Below are positions 42,260 to 58,128 of a stretch of DNA of 64,000 nucleotides, piece after piece. Origin of the DNA: Candidatus Anderseniibacteriota bacterium (GTDB taxonomy: Bacteria > Patescibacteriota > JAUYIX01); NCBI GenBank assembly GCA_046350905.1, contig JAXLZN010000001.1, positions 1,220-65,219 on the forward strand. Reading direction: 5' to 3'. The position numbers and the translations under genes are program-made. A model generated the notes under the pieces. It was not told the origin of the DNA, did no database searches, and worked only from the letters and a program-made list of their open reading frames with translations. The first letter of the stretch is position 1, and each line of letters begins with the position of its first letter.

Positions 42260-42790
42260 CTAGCGCAGAAGCTCGGCCACGAGCCGCCGATCAACGGCTG
42301 TCCCCGGCAAGAGCCGCTGAATCCCCCGCGCGAGGTCCGGAAAGCTACCGGCGCCAATAAAGCGCCCAGCGATGTTGCCAGCCGCATCGATCAAGATGGT
42401 CGTGGGCCAAAAGCGAACCTCAAAGCGGTGGTAGTTCTCGTAGTCGTTGTCGACCGCGACCGGCGGTGATGCGAGTCCGTACCGCTCGAGCTACGTTGGC
42501 AACGTCTGACAAACAGAACTCGGGCGTGTGCACCCCAATGAGCTGAAAGGCTGCGCTTTTGTAGGCGCGCTGGAGCACGGAGGTGCGCTCAGGAGGGACT
42601 GGCTGTGGTGGTCGGCAAAGGACCAGGTTGATGACGCGACCTTGCCCGAGGAGGTCGCCGTCCGATCGTGCGCGTTCGATCCACTCGGAGGCTTCGAGGT
42701 TGGGCGCCCTGACGATGGGATCGTCCTGGCTCGCAGCTCCGGTCGGAGCAGGCTCAGTTGGCTGCGCAAACGTGCTCAAACAGGAAATTA
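42260..42790 (-). pseudogene. thioredoxin-fold redoxin (TlpA/DipZ C-terminal-like) remnant
   Basis: FQLIGVHTPEF..DVANVARAVR, then (shifted near 42470) PVAVDNDYENYHRFEVRFWPTTILIDAAGNIAGRFIGA. The CxxC region is degenerate (LVLCRPPQP). The lipobox-like LISC has no hydrophobic signal upstream. Confidence 0.5.
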
Positions 42791-42942
42791 GGCGACTGCC
42801 ATCCTTTGTATTCCGCGCCTTTGTTTCCTTTTTGACGGACGTTATTCGAACCTTTGCCCCTAGTCTAGCGGATTCGGCGCGCTGGCGCTCATCTAACATC
42901 AGCAGATGATTTGCAGGAGAACAGCCACATAAGTCTGACCAA

Positions 42943-43276
42943 ATGATGGTTTTAGCGGTAATTGGTGTTAGTCTGCTCAGCTTACTGGGCGACTTTGCCT
43001 AATAAGGCCGGGGAAAGTCAGAAATTTATGGATGCCCGCTGGTTCGCAGGTGGAGTTACTTTCTACCTTCTCACTGCAGTGGCGTGGTTTGTGGTCATGA
43101 AGTTCGTAAAGCTGAGCACTATCGGATTAGTGTATTCGACCTCAACTATTCTCTTTCTGACCCTCATCGGCTTCGTTTTCTTCAAAGAACGTCTCAACAC
43201 AGTTGAGGTCATGGGGTTCATTCTCGGCGTAATCGCGATATTTCTCCTAGGCCGTTTTGCGCACGCCTGGCAGTAG
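42943..43276 (+). CDS. SMR/ArnE-like 4-TM small membrane protein (1-nt frame break near 43000)
   Basis: MMVLAVIGVSLLSLLGDFA stops at TAATAA. The next frame continues NKAGESQKF..VKLSTIGLVYSTSTILFLTLIGFVFFKERL..GFILGVIAIFLLG (ORF 42962..43276). Confidence 0.5.
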
Positions 43277-43321
43277 TTACTGATCGCACCCACGTTTGGT
43301 CGACCAATCAGTCTGCCTTTG

Positions 43322-43699
43322 TTAGCTTATTAACTCTATACATTTCGAGACCAATTCTTTCGGCATGTTCTTTGTCTTCTCGAAAAAAGCAATGGCGCCG
43401 AGCTTCCTGGACTCTTCTAACTTGGCCGCTGAAGAAATGTTTGTGAGCATGACTACGGGAATGTCCTTTGTAGATTCATTTTGCTTAAGTTTTTTTAGAA
43501 CTTGTAAGCCGTCCATACCTTCCATCAGAACATCAAGTAAAATCAGGTCGGGATGCCACCTCACCGCACTTGACAGTCCATCCAAGCCGTTAGTTTCAGT
43601 CATTACCTCAAAGCCCTCAAGCTCAAATGGCAGTTTGTACAACAAGGCTTGGTCGTCATCATCTTCAACTAGTAAGATCTTTTTTTCAGTGTTGTTCAT
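43322..43699 (-). CDS. receiver-only response regulator (CheY-like)
   Basis: ILLVEDDDD, phospho-acceptor LILLDVLM, VVMLTN, and a conserved Lys. There is no output domain. Confidence 0.85.
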   Translation of the reverse strand: MNNTEKKILLVEDDDDQALLYKLPFELEGFEVMTETNGLDGLSSAVRWHPDLILLDVLMEGMDGLQVLKKLKQNESTKDIPVVMLTNISSAAKLEESRKLGAIAFFEKTKNMPKELVSKCIELIS

Positions 43700-45249
43700 T
43701 TTCTTTCTGCCTTTGAAAATTCCAACGTAAATGTTGTCCCTTTGTTCTCACCTTCTGATACAAAGCGAATAGAGCCCCCCGGATGCGATTCAATAATTTT
43801 CTTCACTATAAACAGGCCAAGTCCGGAGCCATCTGCGTAAGCCTTAATTGCATTTGATGCGCGTTTGAACTTCTCAAATATTCTTGGCTGTTCAGCAATT
43901 GGAATTCCAATGCCGGTGTCTGAAACTGTCAGTACTGCTTTATCGTTCGTCTCGCGCAGACCTATTCGTACAAACCCCTCATTGGTGTATTTTATTGCGT
44001 TGTCGATGACGTTAGAAATCGCGTGCTCCAGATAATGCGACGAAGCAAGGATGGTAATGGGGGCACCAATATCGATGCCCTGGTATTCCAGTTTTATTTT
44101 CTTTGCTGCAGCCTTCTCTTGTAGATCGTCGCAGATACTTTTTGTTATGGCCCTCAAGTTAATTGGCAGAAGGTCACCTTGAGCCAGTTTGAATGCCACA
44201 ATATCCATTTCTGAAGCTGTAAGGATGTCGTTAACTATGTTGGTCAGTTTTTTCGATTTGTGGAAAAGTCCAGACATCATCATTTTCTTCTTCTCTGCCG
44301 GGATTTTGTCTAAGTCCCCTTCCTCAAGCATTGAGAGCGTACCCGTAATCAACGAAACAGGTGTGCGAAGTTGGTGCGACGCCACGTACAAAAACTCAGA
44401 GCGAGCTTTGATGAGCTCTTCAATTTCTTGACTCTGCGCAATCTCCTTTCTCAGAGCACGAACTATGAAAACAATTAGGAGTGTTATTAGGGCTAAAATA
44501 ACTAGGACCAAAAATCCGATAAACGCGAGAAACGGGTATAGAGTTTGACGCGTAATACTAAAAAAATCGTTTGCTTTTACATCTGTGCCTAGAATTGCAA
44601 CGGTGTTCCCGTTCTCATCTATTATTGGAGCGTATCCAGTCAGAACCGTTCCGTAGTCATCGGTATACAGGTCCTTATTTGTTAGCGGACCGCTGTAAGC
44701 ACTAAACGCCTCTGGAATGTCAGAGGCTTCTGGATAGCCCTGCCCTGGCCACTGAAGTTTATCAGGGCCATCTGGTTCCACCTTGCCGTCGCGATTCACA
44801 TCAACGTATCTGGATGGGTCGTCGCTGGTATTGGCAAACGGGTCAATGGAATCGGCATCCGCCACAAACTCCATTTGAGTTGGGTCGATGCTCGTCTTCC
44901 TAAAGATATACATAAAGACAACGTCTTGGTTGGAATACTTGGCGCGATGCAAGCTATTGACTACCCGTGCCCATTCCGGCTTTTGCCAGTCCTCTTGTAC
45001 GTTAAGCGCGCTCAGGTCTTTCGGATCAATATTTGCTGCTTCGGTAATTGAGATACTGAGCAAGCGCTCTCGAAGGTTATCCTGCAGCAGGACAACGGTT
45101 CGTTGATAAAGGATCCCCGAAGCAAGAATGGCGACAGCAATACTAGTCAGTGCGATAGAGGCACCAATAAATACCAGCTGCCTAGTTTTCCTAGTTTTTA
45201 TTTTTTTGTCCATGTTGCGAGACATCAAGTAAACGATAGACTCTTTCAC
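43696..45249 (-). CDS. sensor histidine kinase with extracytoplasmic Cache-like domain
   Basis: Two TM helices flank a PDC/Cache-like domain (DDYGTVLTGYAPIIDENGNTVAILGTDV). H-box ASHQLRTPV, N-box IDNAIKYT, G1 SDTGIGI, G2 GSGLGL. Confidence 0.85.
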   Translation of the reverse strand: MKESIVYLMSRNMDKKIKTRKTRQLVFIGASIALTSIAVAILASGILYQRTVVLLQDNLRERLLSISITEAANIDPKDLSALNVQEDWQKPEWARVVNSLHRAKYSNQDVVFMYIFRKTSIDPTQMEFVADADSIDPFANTSDDPSRYVDVNRDGKVEPDGPDKLQWPGQGYPEASDIPEAFSAYSGPLTNKDLYTDDYGTVLTGYAPIIDENGNTVAILGTDVKANDFFSITRQTLYPFLAFIGFLVLVILALITLLIVFIVRALRKEIAQSQEIEELIKARSEFLYVASHQLRTPVSLITGTLSMLEEGDLDKIPAEKKKMMMSGLFHKSKKLTNIVNDILTASEMDIVAFKLAQGDLLPINLRAITKSICDDLQEKAAAKKIKLEYQGIDIGAPITILASSHYLEHAISNVIDNAIKYTNEGFVRIGLRETNDKAVLTVSDTGIGIPIAEQPRIFEKFKRASNAIKAYADGSGLGLFIVKKIIESHPGGSIRFVSEGENKGTTFTLEFSKAERK

Positions 45250-47047
45250 CTTCTATATCCATCAGAAATGGTGCGAGTGGAGGTCCTGACTCTCTACCCA
45301 ACAACAACTGATACACATTCTTAAAAAAGCGAGCCTGGCGCGCGCTATTTTGCGTTTTTGTCGCATTTGGCAACTTAGGAATTTGATAAAGCAATGAACG
45401 GAACCGGTCGGCAGATAACGAAGACCTGCGGTGAATCATGTTTCTTAGCAATCTAAGATGCTGAATATCATCAGGCTGCAGTAAGGGAAACAATTCCACA
45501 TTAGGACGATCAAGAACGAAGTAAAGCTTGTTTTTTCTTACCTCGAGATACCTAGCGTTGTCTGTGTTACTAATAGAATGAAGATCGAGATATGCGACGT
45601 CATCAGGGCGTGCAACTTGTGTTCCTATAGATTTCTGTGATCTTATCTTAAGCAATCTTGACACGTCTTTAACTCTGATTTTTCCCGATACCCTCGGCGG
45701 TACCGATCCCTGATGTCTTTTGCGGTGAGCAAGAAATGGTTTCACAATCCATTCGAAGATATCGCGCTGTGGCAATGTGGGCTCCGCTTTTGTTTTCCCG
45801 TTGATGCTGATACTAGAAGCTCCGTAGCCACTACCTCCATAGGGCTTTGTGCCTCGCTCCACACCAGGCGCATGTAAATGCGTATTGTGAAGTAGGGATG
45901 ATCTTGGGTGAAGCACCCGCCCCTTTATTTTTTTTCCAATCATTTTTTGAACGTAGATACTTGTTCCATAGAGTGTTACGTACATGGCATGCTGGGCGTA
46001 TCGGCTATCTTCAAAATAATGATCGAGATCACTATCTCTTCCATACTCTTGAACAAAAACAATCGGTGCAAAAATTTCATTGTAATTGCCCCCCTTGAGT
46101 AGGGGTTTGCAGACAATCGTCGGTTCGACAACGGCATCACTTGCCCTGATTATTCCTGGCGTAGACAGGTCAAGCCATTTTCGATTCTCTACCAGAAAAT
46201 TCTGAATCCTAACGAGATCTTTTGGATCGCCAATGGGGCCGACTCTGCTTTGCTTAGAGGAGTAACTGCCGACATCGAGGCTTGCAACATGGCTCCGAAG
46301 GATGGACAAGAATTTTCTCATGACGCTTTTGTGAACGAGGATTGCATTTGGCGCGGCACAATCTTGCCCTTGATTGTAGAACTGCAATGTGACGACCGCC
46401 TCAACAGCCTTGAGAAGGTCAGCATCTCGCGCTACAACCAGGGGATTATGACCAGCTCCGTTTGCGATGAAAAGTGTATGCTTATCAAATACTGCTCTTA
46501 GCTGGTCAGCATGAGTGGGTGTGCCTGTGAAAATCACTACGTCCGTTACGGGGCTTTTTTCGTCTGTTTGGGAGTTGATCAGAAGCGCTGATCTTTCCTC
46601 GAGAAACTCAACTCTGGAGGACTTAGAGACGATTACGTTTGGAAAAAATTTAGGTACGTCAAGGAGAGCAAGCATGTCATCAAAGAAATGTCTCATGGTA
46701 TGAGGTATACGAAAATACACCTTACTCGCCATCAGAGAAGGCACGAGCACAAAACAAGTTAGTGCATACAAGGGTTGGTTTCTGGGAAGGAACGAGGCGA
46801 TAGTTCCAACCCTTAACTGAAAGAAGTTTCCGTTCTCCTTTAGGTTTCTCAACAGATCGAGAGTCCGAGCCGTTTCATCCTTGATCACCTCGTAACTTTC
46901 GTAACTAGACAGAATTGGAGCTAATTTGCCAAAACGAGACTCGATGATGTCGGCAAAGGATCGTGCAAGTCGTTCAATCGCTGCGAAGTCAAGCGGGGTA
47001 TATGGAACAGGGTTCTTTTTCACAATTATCTTTTTTGTCTTCTTCAT
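45191..47047 (-). CDS. atypical aldehyde-dehydrogenase-superfamily protein fused to a ~170-aa C-terminal extension
   Basis: The ALDH Cys motif FYNQGQDCAAPNAILV and NEIFAPIVFV are present. The ELGG general-base motif is replaced by IANGAGHNP. The C-terminal tail contains FFKNVYQLLLGRESGPPLAPFL. Confidence 0.7.
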   Translation of the reverse strand: MKKTKKIIVKKNPVPYTPLDFAAIERLARSFADIIESRFGKLAPILSSYESYEVIKDETARTLDLLRNLKENGNFFQLRVGTIASFLPRNQPLYALTCFVLVPSLMASKVYFRIPHTMRHFFDDMLALLDVPKFFPNVIVSKSSRVEFLEERSALLINSQTDEKSPVTDVVIFTGTPTHADQLRAVFDKHTLFIANGAGHNPLVVARDADLLKAVEAVVTLQFYNQGQDCAAPNAILVHKSVMRKFLSILRSHVASLDVGSYSSKQSRVGPIGDPKDLVRIQNFLVENRKWLDLSTPGIIRASDAVVEPTIVCKPLLKGGNYNEIFAPIVFVQEYGRDSDLDHYFEDSRYAQHAMYVTLYGTSIYVQKMIGKKIKGRVLHPRSSLLHNTHLHAPGVERGTKPYGGSGYGASSISINGKTKAEPTLPQRDIFEWIVKPFLAHRKRHQGSVPPRVSGKIRVKDVSRLLKIRSQKSIGTQVARPDDVAYLDLHSISNTDNARYLEVRKNKLYFVLDRPNVELFPLLQPDDIQHLRLLRNMIHRRSSLSADRFRSLLYQIPKLPNATKTQNSARQARFFKNVYQLLLGRESGPPLAPFLMDIEGERVYRLLDVSQHGQKNKN

Positions 47048-47385
47048 TTACGTATTTGCATGAAAACAATACCTGCAAGAGCCAAACCCATGCCAAAAAG
47101 TTGGTACATGGAAAAGTTGCCCCATTCATGAAAGAAAAAAAGGCCAACCAGGATAGTGGTTGATGTTAGTAGAACGTCGACGGTAGCTGAGGCTGCGGAC
47201 AACCCCAATTTCTCAGCAACTAAGCCGAAAGAAATAAACACCAGGGGGGAAACGACTACGATGACAAGAAGCCAAGGGGAAACAAACTTGTTTACTTTGC
47301 TGGCCCAAACGGCACTTACTGAATTCGCGATCAGCGCCGTAAGAACGGCTACCGCAATGTAGAACAAGGTAGGTAAGCGGGGCAC
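47044..47385 (-). CDS. SMR/DMT-like 4-TM small membrane protein
   Basis: 113 aa with four hydrophobic helices. ATGA overlaps the ALDH-like gene start. No EmrE-type TM1 Glu. Confidence 0.5.
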   Translation of the reverse strand: MPRLPTLFYIAVAVLTALIANSVSAVWASKVNKFVSPWLLVIVVVSPLVFISFGLVAEKLGLSAASATVDVLLTSTTILVGLFFFHEWGNFSMYQLFGMGLALAGIVFMQIRK

Positions 47386-47391
47386 GAAGCT

Positions 47392-47400
47392 ACTGTATCA
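47392..47400 (-). promoter_or_regulatory. extended -10 TGATACAGT; predicts a leaderless operon transcript
   Basis: The minus strand TGATACAGT ends 6 nt before GTG 47385. Confidence 0.3.
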
Positions 47401-47552
47401 CGACGTTTGATCGCTTTAGTTGCCCTTGGGAAAGTTACTTCCTTGCTCTTTCGCTTTGGACTGCTGTAATAAGTGTTGCTCGAATAGGACCTCGATGGCG
47501 AGGTACTTGCGCCACATTTTCTTAAGGTTTAGGGTTGTAGACTTTAAGCGAT

Positions 47553-48365
47553 GTGAATACCTTGATCCCAGTTGGCGTAGAAACCCCAGGGCAGGCTGCT
47601 GCTGGGGTCGTCCTTTGCTTTGCCTTTCTTCTTGTCGGGGCCTGGCTCTTGGTGCGAAACAGGAAGGCTCCTCGCTATCCCCTAGTAGCTGCAGCCCTAC
47701 TTTGTCTTTCGGTTTCCTTCTGGGTGGCCTCTTCGGTTGCAGCGGGCAGACTCGAGGCACCATTTCAACTCTACGTATCCCTCCTCTTGTCGTACATTTT
47801 GGTCTATCCCGCCCTAATGTCTTTTTTGTGGTTTTGCGAACGTTTTCCGTCATCGCCCTCTGGTAGGGACAGTATTTCTAGTACATTGGCCACTACGGCG
47901 ACTGTCGTTGCGGTAGTGGGCTCCGCCCTCGTCTTGCTACCAGCTACGTCTCCAGACAGGTTTGACGTGACAAGACAGATGGTCTTTACAGTCGGAGCTG
48001 GATACACGTACTGGTTACAGATCATTCTGACGAGCATTGTTTTTGTGAGCGGGGTGCTTATTTGCATACGCAAAATGCAAGCCGTGCGTCCGCACGATAG
48101 AGCTGCTTTACGCACTATACTGATCGGAATCAGTTCAAGTTTTTTCCTTGGAGCTATTTTTTCAATCCTCGCGAACCTCAACCCGCAAGTTTCTGCATTC
48201 AGCAGCGTAGAAACTCCCTCAATTCTTTTCTTGTCAGCGCTGGTGTACGCGCTCGTGCACCACGGGATTGCGGGACAGTCGCGTTCTATTTCAACCCGAG
48301 TCGTTGTTGTTTCTGTAGTGGTGTTAGTCGCAACATCGATCATTTTGCTGACGGTACAGGTATGA
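47553..48365 (+). CDS. stand-alone multi-TM sensor-like membrane protein
   Basis: About 8 TM helices. IRKMQAVRPHDRAALRTILIGISSSF parallels LGKMRHGNPNDRRAVVLIVTSFAAV in the N-terminal domain of the next kinase. Confidence 0.5.
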   Translation: MNTLIPVGVETPGQAAAGVVLCFAFLLVGAWLLVRNRKAPRYPLVAAALLCLSVSFWVASSVAAGRLEAPFQLYVSLLLSYILVYPALMSFLWFCERFPSSPSGRDSISSTLATTATVVAVVGSALVLLPATSPDRFDVTRQMVFTVGAGYTYWLQIILTSIVFVSGVLICIRKMQAVRPHDRAALRTILIGISSSFFLGAIFSILANLNPQVSAFSSVETPSILFLSALVYALVHHGIAGQSRSISTRVVVVSVVVLVATSIILLTVQV

Positions 48366-48378
48366 ACTCGAGCGCCCA

Positions 48379-50409
48379 ATGGTAGCGGTTTTATCAACCA
48401 TTACGCCGCTGCAGGCATTGCTTTCCACGCTGGTGGCAGTTGGTTGCGCAGTAATCGGTTTTTCACTGCTACGTACCAAGCGCGCAACCCTGTACCCGGT
48501 TCGGGCTGCAGCATCGGTGAGCTTTGGTCTCGCCGTCTGGATATTACTCAACGTGTTAGATGACACCTCAACGTCTGTACCCGTTTACTACCACCTTTCA
48601 CAGACAATTTACGCCTACTCCGGGTTTATCCTGCTCAACTTTCTGTACCTTGCACTCCGATTTCCGCCGCTGACACGTCGACCTGCACGGCTCGCAATAC
48701 TTACAGGTGGATTCTTACTGACGTGTGCGGTAGCCGTACTGGTTTTTCACCCCGCTGGTCTGGTTGTCCGCTTCAGCGACGCAATCGGCGACATTGTAAT
48801 CCAGGACCGACTACCCTATTTCTGGATCGTGCTCGGCATTTTCTGCTCGCTGCTGGCGACCTCATGTGCGGTGCTGTTGGGGAAAATGCGACACGGCAAC
48901 CCTAACGATCGACGTGCCGTAGTGCTGATTGTGACAAGTTTTGCAGCTGTTGCACTCACAACGATGGCGATGGTTACGGTCGATGCACTCAACAACGGAC
49001 AGCCCTACCTGCTGCCGTACGCCTACTACGGAATGGGTTTGTTTGTTGCCGCAATGGGGTACGCAATCACAAAGTACGGAGCTCTAGCATCATCCCTGAA
49101 TATTCAGCGGCGTGTGGTTAGCGCCATGGTTTTGGCTTTTTTTGTCGCCCTGATCGGTGTGTTAGCGCCCAGCCTCAGACGAATTGACATTTCCGTGCTC
49201 GTGCTAGCCTGGGTAAGTGTCACACTCGCCGTTGTCGCCTTCTTTATCATTGAGCAGACGCGCTCGTACCCGGACTTACACGCGGCAACAGATGGTCCAC
49301 TCCGGCCAAGCGCGGAGTTTTCCGCGTGGATCGCTAAGCGCCTGGGCTTGACTCGGGCGCACTGGAAACCCGGTACCGACATACGGGGTACGGCAGCACC
49401 AGCCGGCAGCTGGAACAACGCGGACGTATCCAGCACCCTCCGCAAACGAGTCGGCGGCACCCGTTTTGACGAGGCTGGGCCGGAGCGAACCGCCGGGCGG
49501 ATCGCCACATCACGAGGCACGCTCGTGGTCGGACGCAAGCGCTACAACATTGCCCTATCGGAAGAGGAAGTTCGCTCATTGCTCAACTGGGCGAGCCTGC
49601 ACGCAGCAGCACTTGAGTTGCGGGCCCTGCGCGATAAACGGAGCAACCACCTATCCGAAATAACTGCGCTAGCAGATGCGCGCTCAAGAGAGCTTGAACG
49701 AGCAAATCGCAAGCTCTACGAAAAACTGCGCAAGCGCTCAAAGTTTTTTAAGTCCGTTGCTGCTGAGCTTCGTACCCCGCTCACTGTGGTTGTCACGAGC
49801 ATCGATAGCGGCGCGGTCAATGTACCGCAAGAGCAGGCTTCCGCTATCCTTGACGCAGCGCGCAAGCTCAAGACCTTAACCCAAGAGTTCACCCAGGGAA
49901 CTGGCGCTGCTGCTGAGCAGGTTGCTGCAGGCGTGACCTCTCTTGCGGATGTGTGCGAAAACATGGAACGGCAGTACCTAGCCTGGGCCTCCTCAAAACA
50001 GATCGAGCTGCATACCTCGGTCACTCCGCTCGGCGCAAAAACGTCTATTTCACGCATACATATTGAACGTGCGCTCGATAACCTGGTCAGCAACGCACTC
50101 AAGTACAGTCCTGCGGGTACACATGTCTGGATCAATGCAGGTGCGTTGGATGGCAGCGTTCAGCTCGCAGTCGAAGATGAAGGTCCGGGTATCAAGCAAG
50201 AGGATCGTGAGCTGATCTTTGAACCGTTCTTCCGTACGCGTGAGGCTGGAGCAGTGGCCGGCACGGGACTCGGTCTTGCCGCCGTTAAGCACGTTGCGGA
50301 AGCTCACGGAGGTGACGTACGGGTCGAACCGCGAGTGCCGCGAGGTTCGCGATTTGTAGTCACGCTACGAGAGCCTGCACTGGTAGTTAGCAACCACTAT
50401 GCAGCGTGA
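48379..50409 (+). CDS. membrane histidine-kinase-like protein lacking the H-box histidine
   Basis: About 8 TM helices. The DHp H-box reads FFKSVAAELRTPLT (Ala codon 49762-49764 where His is expected). N (DNLVSNALKYS), G1 (EDEGPGI), F (FEPFF) and G2 (GTGLGL) boxes are intact. Confidence 0.8.
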   Translation: MVAVLSTITPLQALLSTLVAVGCAVIGFSLLRTKRATLYPVRAAASVSFGLAVWILLNVLDDTSTSVPVYYHLSQTIYAYSGFILLNFLYLALRFPPLTRRPARLAILTGGFLLTCAVAVLVFHPAGLVVRFSDAIGDIVIQDRLPYFWIVLGIFCSLLATSCAVLLGKMRHGNPNDRRAVVLIVTSFAAVALTTMAMVTVDALNNGQPYLLPYAYYGMGLFVAAMGYAITKYGALASSLNIQRRVVSAMVLAFFVALIGVLAPSLRRIDISVLVLAWVSVTLAVVAFFIIEQTRSYPDLHAATDGPLRPSAEFSAWIAKRLGLTRAHWKPGTDIRGTAAPAGSWNNADVSSTLRKRVGGTRFDEAGPERTAGRIATSRGTLVVGRKRYNIALSEEEVRSLLNWASLHAAALELRALRDKRSNHLSEITALADARSRELERANRKLYEKLRKRSKFFKSVAAELRTPLTVVVTSIDSGAVNVPQEQASAILDAARKLKTLTQEFTQGTGAAAEQVAAGVTSLADVCENMERQYLAWASSKQIELHTSVTPLGAKTSISRIHIERALDNLVSNALKYSPAGTHVWINAGALDGSVQLAVEDEGPGIKQEDRELIFEPFFRTREAGAVAGTGLGLAAVKHVAEAHGGDVRVEPRVPRGSRFVVTLREPALVVSNHYAA

Positions 50410-51772
50410 TGCCTTTGTCGGGTCTACCAGGAACGTAGCAGCTGGTGTGGCCGCTGCTCTGCTGCTCTTTGCCATCGGCATTGGGGCTTTTCAGCTGGCG
50501 GCGGTATTGCGACCGGTACCTACCGTGCTGCTCCTGACGCAAGCCGGGATTGTCGGACTGCTAGCATGGGGTGCTTCATTGGTTGTGCCGCGGGCACGAC
50601 AGATCGCCACGCGGTACCTCTTTCCCGGTTCGTACAATTACGAAGAGCGCGTGCGTCAGTTGGCATTGCGCGCCTCGTACGACGTTTCGCTGTGGGACGC
50701 GAACGTACTACTTAAACAGCTCGGCAACTTGGTTGGAGCACACGTTGCCCTCGTGGATCGAGAGGGTGACGCTGCTCTGATCGTCGAGCTGCCGGCGCGT
50801 ACCATGCATCAGTTTCTGCTCTTTGGGGAAAAAGAAAATGGCGACCCCTGGACCTCACACGATCGACAGCTACTCGAGTGGTTTGCACGTTGCGTTGCCG
50901 TCTCGCTCAGCCTGGCTCGTGAACGCCAGCTCGAGGTGCGACGACTACGTCAGACCGAGGAGCAGCTCACGCGCATGACCAAAGAGGCAACAGAGCTGCG
51001 ATCACAACTCGAGACCCGTGACCATGAACACACAGCTCGCCTCGATGAGCTTGCCCACGACCTAAAGAACCCGATCGTGCATATCGCCAACGCGCTGGAG
51101 CTATCTGGCCTAGAGGACCCAAGTGTGAGCGCAGAATCCTCGTTTCGTAAGGTTCGAGCAGAGGTTGATTGGATGATCAAGTTTGTCGACCACATGCTCG
51201 AACTTGCTCGGGCCGAAGCCGGACGAACCACGCTGCAAAAACAACTGGTATACCTAGACGAGGTGGTCGATGACGCGATCGAGGCCCTTGCGGAGTTTGC
51301 GTCTCGACAGGACCGGCGTGTGGAGCGCCAGTCCAGCGGTCAACTAGTGGATGTTGCGACCATGGCAGACGACGGACTAGTTTACAAGCTGTTTGAACTC
51401 CTTATCAGCCGCGCAATTCGCCTCTCGCCCACAACGGTGCAGTGCCGTATTTCTACCTCACTAGATGGAAAACTGGCCTACGTGGACATTCTTGTTGATC
51501 GCGTACCCGAGCTGGCCGGGATTGAGCCACACGAGCTACTCGGTCGCCTGAGCCGACAATGGATGCACCGCGATGATCGTCAGTTTGGGATTACTGGCCT
51601 AGAACTGTCGATTGCACAGTGGATCATGCAGGCACACAACGGATCACTCACGGTGGCAGAGTCAGATGAGCAGAGAACTGTTATCCGAACAGCATTCCCA
51701 CTCTCGGCAAGTTTTCAACAGGATGATGCTAAGAAAATTTCCGGACAGTCTGTTGCACCTGTCCTCAACTAA
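50399..51772 (+). CDS. histidine kinase with intact H-box but degenerate ATP-binding domain
   Basis: H-box LDELAHDLKNPI is present. The N-box reads ELLISRAIRLS (Asn replaced by Arg). G1 reads VDRVPELAG (no DxGxG). G2-like GITGLEL. It overlaps the upstream gene by 11 nt. Confidence 0.75.
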   Translation: MQRDAFVGSTRNVAAGVAAALLLFAIGIGAFQLAAVLRPVPTVLLLTQAGIVGLLAWGASLVVPRARQIATRYLFPGSYNYEERVRQLALRASYDVSLWDANVLLKQLGNLVGAHVALVDREGDAALIVELPARTMHQFLLFGEKENGDPWTSHDRQLLEWFARCVAVSLSLARERQLEVRRLRQTEEQLTRMTKEATELRSQLETRDHEHTARLDELAHDLKNPIVHIANALELSGLEDPSVSAESSFRKVRAEVDWMIKFVDHMLELARAEAGRTTLQKQLVYLDEVVDDAIEALAEFASRQDRRVERQSSGQLVDVATMADDGLVYKLFELLISRAIRLSPTTVQCRISTSLDGKLAYVDILVDRVPELAGIEPHELLGRLSRQWMHRDDRQFGITGLELSIAQWIMQAHNGSLTVAESDEQRTVIRTAFPLSASFQQDDAKKISGQSVAPVLN

Positions 51773-51783
51773 CACCCGCTGAC

Positions 51784-52611
51784 ATGTGGCGCACTATCCA
51801 AGGAACCTTCAAAAAAAGCCGCGTTGCGCAATTGACGCTCATACTGTTTGTGGCATTGACGCTGTGGTGGATCACGATTTTTATGCGTGGTGTCCGAGAC
51901 GTATTTGAGAGTAACTTATTTTCAGCCATCTACTTTGTCATTGCTCTCATCGGAGGGCTTGCCGGAATTGGCGCAGCGAGACGTTGGGATGGCCGTTCAA
52001 GTGTGCTCGGGCGTGCTGTCTTTGCGCTAGCTGCTGGCATGCTAGCGCAAGTATTTGGCCAGCTTTCGTACGCCGTGGGCATCAACGTCTACCACTTTAC
52101 AATCCCGTACCCCTCCGTCGGGGATATTGGCTACTTCGGCAGCGTTTTCTTCTACATCTACGGTGTTGTCTTACTTGCACGAGCAACTGGAATTCGATTT
52201 TCGCTCAAAAAATACAGAGGGCAGCTGCAGGTAATACTGATTCCAGCTCTACTGTTGACCCTCTCGTATATAGTCTTCTTGAGAGGCTACGTGTTCGATT
52301 GGTCGCATCCACTGCGTATTTTGCTCGACTTTGGATATCCCCTTGGCGAAGCCACGTACGTCTCCATTGCACTACTTGCACTCCTGCTTTCAAGAAACAT
52401 TTTGGGGGGAACGCTGCGGTCACCGCTCGTACTGCTACTGGTGGCACTCATTGCGCAGTACCTCTCTGATTACGTGTTTCTCTACCAGGCCTACCACGGG
52501 ACGTGGCTCAGTGGGGGCATTAACGACTACATGTACCTCATCTCGTACTTTCTGATGACAATCGGGTTAATTCAGATTGGGGTCACCGCTCGTCGTCTTA
52601 CCCAAAACTAG
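51784..52611 (+). CDS. stand-alone 7-8 TM membrane protein
   Basis: 275 aa and hydrophobic throughout. It starts 12 nt after the kinase stop. No soluble domain. Confidence 0.55.
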   Translation: MWRTIQGTFKKSRVAQLTLILFVALTLWWITIFMRGVRDVFESNLFSAIYFVIALIGGLAGIGAARRWDGRSSVLGRAVFALAAGMLAQVFGQLSYAVGINVYHFTIPYPSVGDIGYFGSVFFYIYGVVLLARATGIRFSLKKYRGQLQVILIPALLLTLSYIVFLRGYVFDWSHPLRILLDFGYPLGEATYVSIALLALLLSRNILGGTLRSPLVLLLVALIAQYLSDYVFLYQAYHGTWLSGGINDYMYLISYFLMTIGLIQIGVTARRLTQN

Positions 52612-52619
52612 CAGCGGCC

Positions 52620-52898
52620 ATGACTCCCGCCGATACCGTTGCCACCGCAATCATCCGAGCTCAGGCAGCGATCATCGGCTCAATCGCGTGGAGACAAGCC
52701 GCCAAAGTTGCGGGCGTCTCGATCAACCAGGAGTTTCAAATTGCTCATGTTAGCAGTGATACAAAAACCGTCCTAACAAACTTGATCAATAGGTACGAAC
52801 ATTTGTTTGGTCACGCCGCAACGAGTGTAAGCCGCGAGGGCGCCGGGCCTCACGTAGCCAGTCTCTTGGAGGAAGAGATCCCTAGCGGACTAAAATGA
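52620..52898 (+). CDS. hypothetical protein (92 aa)
   Basis: The ORF starts 9 nt after the previous stop. No motif recognised. Confidence 0.4.
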   Translation: MTPADTVATAIIRAQAAIIGSIAWRQAAKVAGVSINQEFQIAHVSSDTKTVLTNLINRYEHLFGHAATSVSREGAGPHVASLLEEEIPSGLK

Positions 52899-52911
52899 AT
52901 AACACAGCAAC

Positions 52912-53940
52912 TTACTTTGGGTACTTGGTGTACCCAGTACTGACAACAAGGATTTTAGCGTCTTCGGTAACTTTTTTCTTACCGAGCTGCAACAATAGTG
53001 CCAAACCAGCCAGGCCAGAAGGCTCGGCCCGTACATTGTTCCGCTCTGCGACCTGCATAGCCTGCTCAAGGTAGCGTTCCTGAATTGCATGCACGCCAGA
53101 CTGTGCGCCACAGAAACCAGAGTACTGATAGAGCTTGATCGACTGTTCGTTAAAGTGCACAAAGGGAAGGTGCGGCGAGTAGAGTTTGGTCGCGGACGAA
53201 CTCGGATCATTGGTTGTTGCCCCGAGAAAATGACAGCGACGGAGGATGGCATTGCGACCCTTGTACCGTGGGTCGTGGAGAGACGTGCTTACTTCACGTT
53301 TATTGATCCCAAGAATATTTTCGTAGAGAGTGCCTGTGCCAAAAGGAATAAAGCAGTACTCGGGCGACTGGTTGATCACCTCGTAGCTCAACCAATCATA
53401 AAAGCGAGTCGCGGGGTCGAGTGCTTCAGATGACGTGATGTCGAACCCGTCTGGGTTGTGGGTCAGTGCGAGGATATCGCTCCAGGAAAGCGGGGCGCGC
53501 GACAGATCAGTTTGAAAAATCTCGCAACCGAGTTTTTCTAATACGTTTACAATATTGGCGTCCAATTCTGTGTCGACAAGCACTTTGAGATTCGGCAGAC
53601 CGTATTTGTTGAGCTGCGTTTGGATGGCAACTGCTGCCGAACCAGACGAAATGATAGACATCTGTGGAAGCGTCGCCGAAGAAAGATTGTTTTTCTTTGC
53701 GAGCAGAAAGTGACGGTACGTGACCACAATCTCCCAGGCCATTCTGTCCTTATGCGTGCCTGTAGGGTTGTAGCTTTCATCTTTCAACCACACGTTGGTA
53801 AAGCCATGCACCTTGATCTTGTACGTAGGTGTCGCAGGAAACTTAGGATCGTCAGCGGGGAACTCCGGCCGCCGTGGATCATTTTCTGATCGCACGTGAA
53901 TTCGGCTCAGAATCTTTTTCTCAGCCGAGGAAAGAGACAT
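52912..53940 (-). CDS. PLP-dependent enzyme, tryptophan-synthase-beta fold (PALP family)
   Basis: WLKDESYNPTGTHKDRMAWE contains the PLP-lysine motif (NPTG[ST]xKDR). Start reset to MSLSSAEKK (ATG 53940). The upstream 130 codons of the ORF track overlap the M20 gene. Confidence 0.75.
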   Translation of the reverse strand: MSLSSAEKKILSRIHVRSENDPRRPEFPADDPKFPATPTYKIKVHGFTNVWLKDESYNPTGTHKDRMAWEIVVTYRHFLLAKKNNLSSATLPQMSIISSGSAAVAIQTQLNKYGLPNLKVLVDTELDANIVNVLEKLGCEIFQTDLSRAPLSWSDILALTHNPDGFDITSSEALDPATRFYDWLSYEVINQSPEYCFIPFGTGTLYENILGINKREVSTSLHDPRYKGRNAILRRCHFLGATTNDPSSSATKLYSPHLPFVHFNEQSIKLYQYSGFCGAQSGVHAIQERYLEQAMQVAERNNVRAEPSGLAGLALLLQLGKKKVTEDAKILVVSTGYTKYPK

Positions 53941-53953
53941 GCTACGCCGGAGG

Positions 53954-55096
53954 CTAGAGGCGGGCGGTGGCGTTGTCAACAACCTCACACAGAATCGCAG
54001 AGAGATCCGCAATGCTTTGCAGGGTGACGAACTCGTCGAGCCCGTGCATCCCTGCTCCGGTGGGTCCAAGCAAGACCGCTGGCACACGCCAACGCTCGGC
54101 CAGCAGCTGGATGTCGGAGTAACCACCCTTGCCTGCAGGCGCGTATGAAACGCGGCCGAGGACGCTGCGCTGCGCCTGCTCGACCAAGCGCAGCTTGCTG
54201 CGAGGCGTTGTGAACGACCCGAGGCTATTCTTAGTCGTTGTAGCGGGGTTCGCGCCGTACGCACGTACCGCGCGCTCAAACGTGCGAATGATCCGCTGAG
54301 GTGTAAGCCCCGTGACCGTCCTGACTTCAATGGTCGCGCTACAAGTATCGGGAATCACGTTGGCCGGCGCGGTACTTCCATCGCCGATCCCGCAGCGAAC
54401 ACCAGTCACGTTGAGGGTTGGTTTACCAAGCACGCGATCGTTTGTCATCCGAACAAGTCGCTTGAGCGCATCAACGCCCGCGAGCAGGCCCTCAAATGCA
54501 CTGACGCCAGACCATGGACGCGCAGCGTGACCAGACTTGCCACGCACTGCTACGTCGAGCTCAAGTACACCCCGACAGCCTGCCCGCAGCGCTAGGTTAG
54601 TCGGTTCAGGGCAGATGACGAGCCGTGGTCGTGGAAGCCCTGCTGTCCTTACAAACTGCTTCATGCCGACAAAGTCGTACTCTTCGTCGGCGTAGAAGAG
54701 CGCCGCAACGTTACTGCAACCGTGGACCGCGGCATGTTCGAGCACTACGAGGATGGCCACGAGACCGGCTTTCATGTCGGCTGATCCACGCCCGTACAGA
54801 CGACTACCTACGCGCTGACCAAGCGAACGGTAACGCCAACCAGTGCCGAGCGGCACGGTATCCATGTGGCCGATCAACAGCACGCCAGCTTGTACTCGTT
54901 TCCGTGGAGTAACCACAAGGTTAACGCGACCCGGCGTGACGACTTGCCGCCGCACGCGGTAGGTCGGTAGATGGCGCTCAATGTACGTCTCGAGGTAGTC
55001 AGCAACACCTCGCTCGACAGAGCCGCGACGTGGCTGTGCCTCGCGGTCGCTCCTGATTGCGATGAGCCGCTTGAGCAACTCCAGGTCAACGTTCAT
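53954..55096 (-). CDS. M20 family metallopeptidase (ArgE/DapE-like deacylase)
   Basis: LLIGHMDTVP, GRGSADMKAG, ADEEYDF and the dimerisation-domain layout. It lies 13 nt upstream of the PLP enzyme gene. Confidence 0.8.
   Translation of the reverse strand: MNVDLELLKRLIAIRSDREAQPRRGSVERGVADYLETYIERHLPTYRVRRQVVTPGRVNLVVTPRKRVQAGVLLIGHMDTVPLGTGWRYRSLGQRVGSRLYGRGSADMKAGLVAILVVLEHAAVHGCSNVAALFYADEEYDFVGMKQFVRTAGLPRPRLVICPEPTNLALRAGCRGVLELDVAVRGKSGHAARPWSGVSAFEGLLAGVDALKRLVRMTNDRVLGKPTLNVTGVRCGIGDGSTAPANVIPDTCSATIEVRTVTGLTPQRIIRTFERAVRAYGANPATTTKNSLGSFTTPRSKLRLVEQAQRSVLGRVSYAPAGKGGYSDIQLLAERWRVPAVLLGPTGAGMHGLDEFVTLQSIADLSAILCEVVDNATARL

Positions 55097-55154: not shown

Positions 55155-58128
<2,974 letters not shown>

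Follow-up and report, generated by a model that had tools for sequence, protein, structure and literature searches.

A conserved pair of reciprocally defective histidine kinases as a candidate split kinase in Candidatus Anderseniibacteriota

Histidine kinases are normally homodimers, and cis versus trans phosphorylation and dimer asymmetry have mostly been studied with engineered mixed dimers, in which a His-minus subunit is combined with one defective in the catalytic, ATP-binding (CA) domain. In classical experiments with EnvZ and NtrB, His-minus and CA-minus mutants reportedly complemented each other in such dimers, so that the chemistry is feasible. In Spo0B and ChpT, a helical bundle that carries the His precedes a CA-like domain without the ability to bind ATP. 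Split or heteromeric kinases are already known from CheA3/CheA4, HK1/HK2, and FasB/FasC; for HK1/HK2, the biochemistry of Shrivastava et al. from 2007 is said to show that one protein binds ATP and the other has the phosphorylatable His. The two adjacent genes analyzed here, kinases A and B, would be a further variant of these systems. They occupy positions 48379 to 51772 of a 64,000-nucleotide stretch (hereafter the window) of contig JAXLZN010000001.1 from Candidatus Anderseniibacteriota bacterium (assembly GCA_046350905.1). An earlier note on this DNA, made from the sequence alone, had suggested that neither protein suffices alone, with catalysis coming from A and the phospho-acceptor from B.

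The closest described case is the FasBCA system of group A Streptococcus, in which FasC can do without its kinase domain and was proposed to be a pseudokinase, its H246 being required; FasB and FasC interact with each other, and not with themselves, in two-hybrid assays, and the kinase domain of FasB was proposed to phosphorylate His246 of FasC (PMC12675982). Neither CheA3 nor CheA4 of Rhodobacter sphaeroides autophosphorylates alone; CheA4 phosphorylates CheA3, and the His-bearing partner is also a phosphatase (PMC3591291). Amin, Porter and Soyer (2013) used the motif HE/DxxN/T to predict bifunctional split HisKA kinases and estimated that approximately 1.7% of HisKA proteins carry the phosphatase motif yet have no CA domain, and split-kinase theory predicts ultrasensitive or bistable responses (PMC3591291). 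The HK1/HK2-TcrA system of Mycobacterium tuberculosis (Rv0600c/Rv0601c/Rv0602c) is listed as a unit, with TcrA as the cognate regulator (PMC9321153). DivL of Caulobacter has no phospho-His, forms complexes with CckA, and is catalytically inactive, and RetS of Pseudomonas forms heterodimers with GacS through the DHp domain (PMC12189002).

Reciprocal substitutions in kinases A and B and their conservation

Kinase A (676 amino acids; 48379..50409, + strand) contained a seven-transmembrane (7TM) sensor, a cytoplasmic linker, a DHp (dimerization) domain without the phospho-His, and an intact CA domain, and is named 'ATP-binding protein' by NCBI (MFO0702305.1). Its approximately 7-8 hydrophobic segments were all located up to residue 291. 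The Pfam matches were HATPase_c with 94.8 bits (cut-off 26.4), HisKA_7TM with 33.3 bits, and HisKA with 19 bits, which was under the cut-off of 26.9. The CA domain (50056..50373, + strand) harbored the N box NLVSNALKYS (50080-50109), the G1 box DEGPGI (50176-50193), the F box FEPFF (50218-50232), and the G2 box GTGLGL (50260-50277), all of them intact, as the earlier note had read them. A aligned with the cytoplasmic domain of HK853 from end to end (E = 1e-23), by which a DHp and CA fold is expected, and its top match in a PDB sequence search was the engineered HK853 H260A mutant (6rh7). In this alignment Ala462 of A (GCT, 49762..49764, + strand, codon checked; H box FKSVA-A-ELRTPLTV) fell on His260 of HK853 and the ELRTPLT motif was identical, which confirmed the Ala that had been read at the phospho-His position. 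No His was present in the whole DHp domain of A, the closest ones lying 38 and 54 residues upstream, and alignment placed no other His in its DHp helix. An alternative phospho-His was considered and rejected, as the upstream His residues differ in offset between homologs and none is conserved. Of the canonical HisKA features, A thus has the ATP-binding CA domain and lacks the phospho-His, and it is proposed to be the sensor and catalytic subunit.

Kinase B (457 amino acids; 50399..51772, + strand), a 'hypothetical protein' in the NCBI annotation (MFO0702306.1), contained two transmembrane segments, a cytoplasmic linker domain, a His-bearing DHp domain, and a pseudo-CA domain. It matched HisKA with 28.3 bits, above the cut-off, and HATPase_c with 25.5 bits, just under it. 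His220 (CAC, 51056..51058, + strand; H box ELA-H-DLKNP) aligned with the phospho-His of several solved kinases, so that the H-box His claimed earlier was retained, and the H-D-x-x-N sequence at this position also fits the HisKA phosphatase motif HE/DxxN/T (PMC3591291). The ATP site of B (51407..51607, + strand) was degenerate. In its N box (SRAIRLS) the Mg/ATP-binding Asn was replaced by Arg338 (CGC, 51410-51412) and the second conserved Asn by Leu, the DxGxG of G1 was replaced by VDRVPELAG (51494-51520), and the GxGLGL of G2 by ITGLEL (51590-51607). The earlier reading of an Arg in the N box and of a G1 box without glycines was therefore correct, and the G2 glycines were lost as well; alignment showed that B does not keep all ATP-contact residues. 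A 14-residue deletion of the ATP lid that was seen in the first MAFFT alignments disappeared in the local-pair alignment and is not claimed. The AlphaFold2 model of B (mean pLDDT 70.7, and 84-96 over the DHp hairpin and CA-like domain) placed DHp helices at residues 153-235 and 246-273 and an alpha/beta CA-like domain at 282-435. Foldseek matched this model best to the canonical HisKA kinases GacS, YycG, HprS, CpxA, and HK853 (E approximately 1e-12 to 1e-13), the structure of RetS was also among the matches, and no ChpT or Spo0B was found in the top 50. B thus has the DHp hairpin followed by an alpha/beta CA fold, and the phospho-His, and lacks the ATP-binding motifs; it is proposed to be the phospho-acceptor and transfer subunit.

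The open reading frame (ORF) coordinates of A and B given in the earlier note were exact, and so was the 11-nt overlap of the two genes, ATGCAGCGTGA, which extends from the ATG of B to the TGA of A (50399..50409, + strand, sequence checked). The start of B is supported by conserved N-termini among the homologs with membrane anchors (long forms).

Family-wide occurrence of the pair was assessed with an exhaustive HMMER profile search with B against 1.84 billion representatives of 50%-identity clusters. There were 13 matches at E <= 1e-30, including 11 of the B type and two ordinary hybrid kinases; when the best 150 matches were screened for motifs, exactly 11 B-type representatives were again obtained, and the family signature G(I/M)TG(L/M)E(L/F) occurred in exactly 11 of these 150. 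P0172 and P0174, matches of the B profile with several modules that were considered as possible natural A-B fusions, proved to be hybrid kinases of the ordinary kind whose motifs are intact. This search superseded pattern scans with the B profile over GTDB species genomes and JGI metagenome contigs, which returned only ordinary kinases (23-30% identity over most of the query) and say little about distribution, because back-translated patterns miss divergent members. A word-index search with B recovered four relatives only, and with full-length A nothing beyond A itself. Another family member carries the label 'Parcubacteria group bacterium', and the A/B family appears to be confined to the candidate phyla radiation (CPR)/Parcubacteria.

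Eleven lineages were compared, namely the window and the loci L002, L003, L004, L113, L115, L116, L118, L119, L120, and L121. An A-type gene, with a match to HATPase_c only, was located directly upstream of the B-type gene in all 11 lineages with upstream DNA. The contigs of two other B-type genes (P0003 and L122) were too short to show the upstream gene, and no B-type gene was seen on a contig showing absence of the A partner (11 clusters, among the representatives searched). The overlaps of the two genes were 11, 4, 4, 4, 17, 17, 4, 0, 4, 4, and 1 nt, and were at least 4 nt in 9 of 11. Conservation of the pair as a unit in other genomes, which the earlier note had suggested checking, was thus observed, the genes being adjacent in every lineage and nearly always overlapping at start and stop. 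Programmed frameshifting that would fuse A and B was considered and rejected, because the overlap is 0, 1, 4, 11, or 17 nt depending on lineage and the frame relation of the two genes therefore differs.

Motif tables were derived from the local-pair alignment. In the A-type proteins the His position was occupied by A, N, A, A, A, T, Q, E, S, A, and A, followed in all of them by E(L/I)R(T/V)P, and the N, G1, F, and G2 boxes were intact in 11 of 11. In the B-type proteins the His was present in all 11, the position of the N-box Asn was occupied by R, R, R, R, Y, S, R, R, R, W, and R, DxGxG was found in none, and G2 was (I/M)TG(L/M)E(L/F). The B-type H boxes read H-D/E-L/F-K-N/D-P, with Asn at H+4 in nine of 11; the Asp of L113 and L115 departs from the phosphatase motif. 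At the sequence level, the catalytic ATP site and the acceptor His were thus located on separate polypeptides in every lineage.

Both A and B are under purifying selection. In the two comparisons with unsaturated dS, the dN/dS values of A were 0.08 and 0.10, and those of B were 0.31 and 0.13. The pairwise distance matrices of A and B were correlated, with r = 0.80 and a Mantel p <= 0.0002, and much of this signal came from two close pairs of lineages. In a profile-profile alignment A and B were approximately 13% identical; an origin of the pair by recent tandem duplication was rejected on this ground, and the split is accordingly ancient. Furthermore, net charge was calculated over the 28 residues that precede the His position, a segment comprising a coiled coil and, after it, the first DHp helix. 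It ranged from +1 to +9 (mean +4.6) in A-type proteins and from -4 to +1 (mean -1.2) in B-type proteins, and in each of the 11 pairs A had the higher value (Wilcoxon p = 0.001). The same residues of ordinary kinases had a mean of +0.17 +/- 1.5 (n = 143), and only 0.7% of these reached +4. A basic helix in A and a more acidic one in B suggest that A:A pairing is disfavored and A:B pairing favored.

The family comprised two forms. In the long forms (window, L002, L116, L118, L119, and L120) A and B were membrane-anchored, and stand-alone 7TM paralogs accompanied five of these six pairs (window, L002, L118, L119 with two copies, and L120). The short forms (L003, L004, L113, L115, and L121) were soluble proteins without membrane domains, of approximately 240-290 and 234-276 amino acids, scarcely more than DHp and CA. 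On the 1.05-Mb contig of L119, the A-type protein (449 amino acids) lacked the 7TM domain and its gene was preceded by two 7TM paralog genes (L119:3040-4617 and L119:4655-6004), an arrangement which indicates that the sensor module can be split off as stand-alone proteins.

A proposed split kinase and the alternatives to it

The favored reading, with a probability of roughly 0.6, is that A and B are each one subunit of a single histidine kinase of the HisKA type, a hard-wired split (heteromeric) enzyme. The interpretation in the earlier note is supported by the conservation of the pair, the fixed reciprocal substitutions, selection, co-divergence, and helix charge. In the proposed mechanism, A would perceive a signal through its 7TM and linker domains, to which the stand-alone 7TM paralog may contribute, and would bind ATP in its intact CA domain. 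Since A has no His of its own, its CA domain would act in trans and phosphorylate His220 of B, most likely inside a four-helix-bundle heterodimer of the A and B DHp domains. B, predicted to be unable to bind ATP, would carry the phosphoryl group and hand it to a receiver domain, and would probably also act as a phosphatase through its H-D-x-x-N motif. The intact CA motifs of A and its dN/dS of approximately 0.08-0.10 argue that catalysis by A is needed.

The sole candidate receiver in view in this genome is a stand-alone, single-domain response regulator of 125 amino acids (43322..43699, - strand; Response_reg 69.8 bits; 'response regulator', MFO0702300.1), which was the only match to the receiver profile across the window and all related loci. 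It lies 4.7 kb upstream of the pair and is a candidate recipient of the phosphate from B. The gene overlaps by 4 nt with the stop of a co-operonic gene for a canonical histidine kinase, HK3 (517 amino acids; 43696..45249, - strand; HisKA 40.1 bits, HATPase_c 90.1 bits), which has an SHQLRTP H box, an intact CA domain, two transmembrane segments, and an extracytoplasmic domain of approximately 190 amino acids. The earlier statement that no DNA-binding response regulator is nearby is literally true, but it missed the stand-alone receiver and HK3, located 3-5 kb upstream.

Several points weigh against the split-kinase reading. If the DHp loop has the handedness that dictates cis phosphorylation, as in HK853, the CA domain of A would be placed next to its own Ala in a 1:1 heterodimer. 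The simple model does not explain why E-L-R-T-P is invariant in A after the missing His; the DHp domain of A may still dock a response regulator or act as a phosphatase. In the other 10 lineages, the 6-10 kb around the pair contained no receiver gene. Moreover, the mirror-tree correlation owes part of its strength to the two close lineage pairs, the low identity of A and B means that they are not recent duplicates that would heterodimerize by default, and the helix charge argument for A:B pairing is suggestive only. The DHp specificity residues of A, B, and HK3 were compared by eye for a shared regulator; this comparison was uninformative and was not used. As for its assembly, the complex may be a 1:1 DHp heterodimer or an A2+B2 arrangement.

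A more specific version is entertained tentatively, and as a whole it is doubtful. The DHp heterodimer of A and B would be obligate, 1:1, and intrinsically asymmetric, and would amount to a natural, hard-wired 'half-of-sites' kinase in which each bundle has a single catalytic domain and a single phospho-His. Its His-less face (ELRTP of A) would be a dedicated site for response-regulator docking or phosphatase activity, so that kinase and phosphatase would reside on opposite faces of the bundle, controllable by the 7TM input of A versus the two-transmembrane and linker inputs of B. The soluble pairs of five lineages would be the same core in minimal form, without sensor domains.

Several rival explanations were weighed against the split-kinase reading. 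An unlikely one is a phosphorelay in which HK3 phosphorylates the 125-aa receiver and this in turn feeds B, a phosphotransferase of the Spo0B/ChpT kind, with A as a regulatory pseudokinase of the DivL kind. A canonical kinase and a Spo0F-like single-domain receiver are indeed located 3-5 kb away in the same low-GC island, and the DHp and dead CA domain of B match the domain logic of Spo0B/ChpT. For a pseudo-histidine kinase without the His, DivL is an established example, and it regulates CckA (PMC12189002). However, the conserved partner of B is A, and the lack of receivers within 6-10 kb at 10 of 11 loci, together with the lack of ChpT or Spo0B in the top 50 Foldseek matches, which group B with true HisKA kinases, sets B apart from the Spo0B/ChpT type. 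B is also above the HisKA threshold of Pfam, and the ATP motifs of A, which a purely regulatory pseudokinase would not need, are intact in 11 of 11 lineages and under strong constraint. The existence of RetS-GacS and RetS-PA1611 heterodimers (PMC12189002) makes it conceivable that A, B, or both heterodimerize with and modulate a canonical, often 7TM, kinase and not each other. In L002, L116, and L119, canonical HisKA_7TM kinases occur a few kb from the pair, and the window also contains a canonical kinase, but none was found in the available sequence around L003, L004, L113, L115, L118, L120, and L121, and defects that are exactly reciprocal, co-inherited, and translationally coupled would be left unexplained; this possibility is considered improbable.

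It is very improbable that A is an ATP-dependent enzyme with a substrate other than His (Ser/Thr/Tyr, as for SpoIIAB/RsbW or the Tyr-bearing DivL) or a dedicated phosphatase, and B an unrelated scaffold. The Thr of L115 and the Ser of L119 at the His position would suit such an enzyme, as would the invariance of E-L-R-T-P, with its phosphatase-motif Thr, despite the missing His. On the other hand, the remaining nine lineages have A, N, Q, or E at this position, so that no hydroxyl is conserved there. In B, the His and the HDxxN context around it are invariant and selected for, and a simple scaffold would have no need of this. The location of the pair in a low-GC island (51-57%, compared with 66-69% in the flanks), both bordering genes of which (uvrA and an AhpC-like gene) are frame-disrupted, raises the question of decaying paralogs in a horizontally acquired island or of substitutions introduced by assembly errors. 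Yet the same substitutions were found in 11 independent assemblies from different samples, whose pairwise identities of 35-90% show that the loci are not one contaminating sequence; both ORFs are full-length with dN/dS well under 1, and an independent Logan assembly of run SRR26348421 gave A exactly. Decay or artifact is thus extremely improbable.

Genomic setting of the pair

Five genes on the + strand followed one another closely, either overlapping or separated by 8-13 nt, in the order 7TM protein, A, B, 275-aa protein, and 92-aa ORF. The stand-alone 7TM membrane protein (270 amino acids; 47553..48365, + strand; HisKA_7TM 27.8 bits), separated from A by 13 nt, is probably encoded by the first gene of the operon. 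It was 24% identical to residues 9-247 of A over 246 amino acids (E = 2e-6), and both proteins match HisKA_7TM, in agreement with the earlier claim that it is a paralog of the membrane domain of A. The 275-aa polytopic membrane protein (51784..52611, + strand), which starts 11 nt past B and possibly belongs to the same operon, had no Pfam or NCBIfam match; its sole homolog in the related loci, 49% identical, was located approximately 1 kb upstream of the L115 pair. Of the two multi-TM proteins that the earlier note described as bracketing the pair, both are present, and the upstream one is conserved in the long-form loci as described above, but the downstream one is not a conserved flank. The 92-aa ORF (52620..52898, + strand) begins 8 nt past the 275-aa gene, had no Pfam or NCBIfam match, and had no homolog in the related A/B loci. 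Promoter and terminator scans of the island gave results at chance level and were uninformative.

The low-GC island extended over approximately 42.6-53.9 kb of the window (42600-53950) and comprised two strata. The receiver, HK3, and the ALDH-like and SMR-like genes described below formed a stratum of 42-47% GC, and the 7TM protein, A, B, the 275-aa membrane protein, the 92-aa ORF, and a pyridoxal phosphate (PLP)-dependent enzyme formed another of 51-57% GC. The window was collinear with L003 on either side of the pair, with flanking proteins that were 75-94% identical. In both, the pair was located between an AhpC-like gene and uvrA; it was also beside uvrA in L119 and L120, and L002 shares the AhpC-like neighbor. 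A and B of the window were only approximately 45-53% identical to the short A'/B' proteins of L003, which sit in the same slot. This difference from the flanks, together with the low GC content, suggests that the slot is conserved and that the A/B cassette was probably replaced or expanded by lateral transfer from a lower-GC relative.

A PLP-dependent enzyme of the PALP family recurs beside A/B pairs (window 52912-53973, - strand; L121:3107-4171; L113:1198-2022) and may be a regulatory target of the pairs or plain shared cargo. The true length of the window copy is approximately 353 amino acids, the maximal ORF of 472 amino acids running into an M20 peptidase gene. Its 71% identity to the copy beside the TrmB-A'-B' cluster of L121, and the similarity of the 275-aa protein to its homolog at L115, point in the same direction as lateral transfer. 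A transcription regulator of the TrmB family was located directly upstream of, and divergent from, the short pairs of L113 (L113:2022-2792), L115 (L115:2089-2889), and L121 (L121:4174-4932), which are all three of the TrmB-linked short pairs. No receiver domain was detectable in these regulators, and the window holds no TrmB homolog; the soluble pairs may alternatively have the TrmB protein as their output or regulator. Run SRR26348421, which contains the window A gene (L001), also contains the short TrmB-linked pair of L115, on a contig with 46% GC. Carriers of the long and short forms thus share one community, and given the GC difference it is less likely that both forms occur in one genome.

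Some further observations concern the borders and the remaining genes of the island. The uvrA gene (55155-58128, - strand) was split into two overlapping ORFs of 342 and 689 amino acids, with breaks near 56194 and 56237, corresponding to two 1-nt deletions relative to the intact 982-aa uvrA of L003; these may be assembly indels or real frameshifts. The AhpC/thioredoxin-like gene (42263-42998, - strand) was spread over three frames compared with intact homologs in L003 and L002, and is a pseudogene or an assembly error. Disruption of the frame in both bordering genes indicates that the quality of the assembly is imperfect. A protein of 618 amino acids (45191-47047, - strand) matched aldehyde dehydrogenase (ALDH) only over residues 165-358, with a long C-terminal extension without a match; it is encoded in the lowest-GC part of the island and had no homolog in any related locus. 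Two small membrane ORFs that resemble SMR/EbrB proteins (43028-43276, + strand, and 47044-47385, - strand; 82 and 113 amino acids), 4 kb apart on opposite strands, may be the halves of a paired small multidrug-resistance (SMR) transporter.

Comparison with described split kinases and pseudokinases

The A/B family looks like a natural, fixed version of the mixed-dimer experiment, kept across divergent CPR/Parcubacteria. If the split-kinase reading is correct, the pair would provide a naturally asymmetric system for studying in which direction phosphate is transferred and how kinase and phosphatase activities are separated, and the soluble pairs, which are very small (approximately 240 + 250 amino acids), would be suited to structural work. 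Current annotation ('ATP-binding protein', 'hypothetical protein', 'KdpD') would then overlook functional two-gene kinases, which would add a signaling module to very small genomes with few two-component genes.

Among pseudokinases, DivL resembles A in having no phospho-His and in forming a kinase-kinase complex of the kind proposed for A/B, but the catalytic domain of A is intact and under strong constraint. DivL and RetS both regulate an otherwise self-sufficient kinase, whereas neither A nor B looks self-sufficient. B is similar to Spo0B and ChpT in combining a His bundle with a CA-like domain that cannot bind ATP, but in the long form it is membrane-anchored, and it is linked to an ATP-competent partner instead of a receiver.

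As in CheA3/CheA4, ATP catalysis and the acceptor His reside on separate polypeptides, and B carries the HE/DxxN/T motif. CheA3/CheA4 differ in being class II proteins with the His on a separate P1/HPt domain and in having been split by the clean loss of whole domains, whereas A and B both keep a full DHp and CA, are point-degenerate halves, and have the His position in the dimerization domain of both. HK1/HK2 share with A/B the division of a HisKA-class function between two adjacent genes. Each of them, however, is a fragment that amounts essentially to a single domain, with an OmpR-type regulator encoded next to them, whereas A and B are full-length kinases with sensor domains and no linked regulator.

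The likeness to FasB/FasC, the closest case, lies in two adjacent HisKA-type kinase-like genes in one operon, one of which bears the functional His. This likeness is drawn from the published description of Fas, and the two systems differ in phylum (Firmicutes versus CPR) and in sensor domains. By its residues, A/B falls in the FasB/FasC type at the level of sequence, B having the His and a dead CA domain and A an intact CA domain. The division of labor in Fas was found by mutagenesis, and FasB keeps a candidate His (H284), so that cis phosphorylation is not excluded there; in contrast, the His is physically gone from A and the ATP-site residues from B in every member of the A/B family. The Fas operon also contains the DNA-binding regulator FasA, and no such regulator is linked to A/B. 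The features distinctive of A/B are therefore complete DHp and CA folds in both proteins, reciprocal defects that are fixed family-wide, translational coupling, and the possibility of own sensor domains in both partners.

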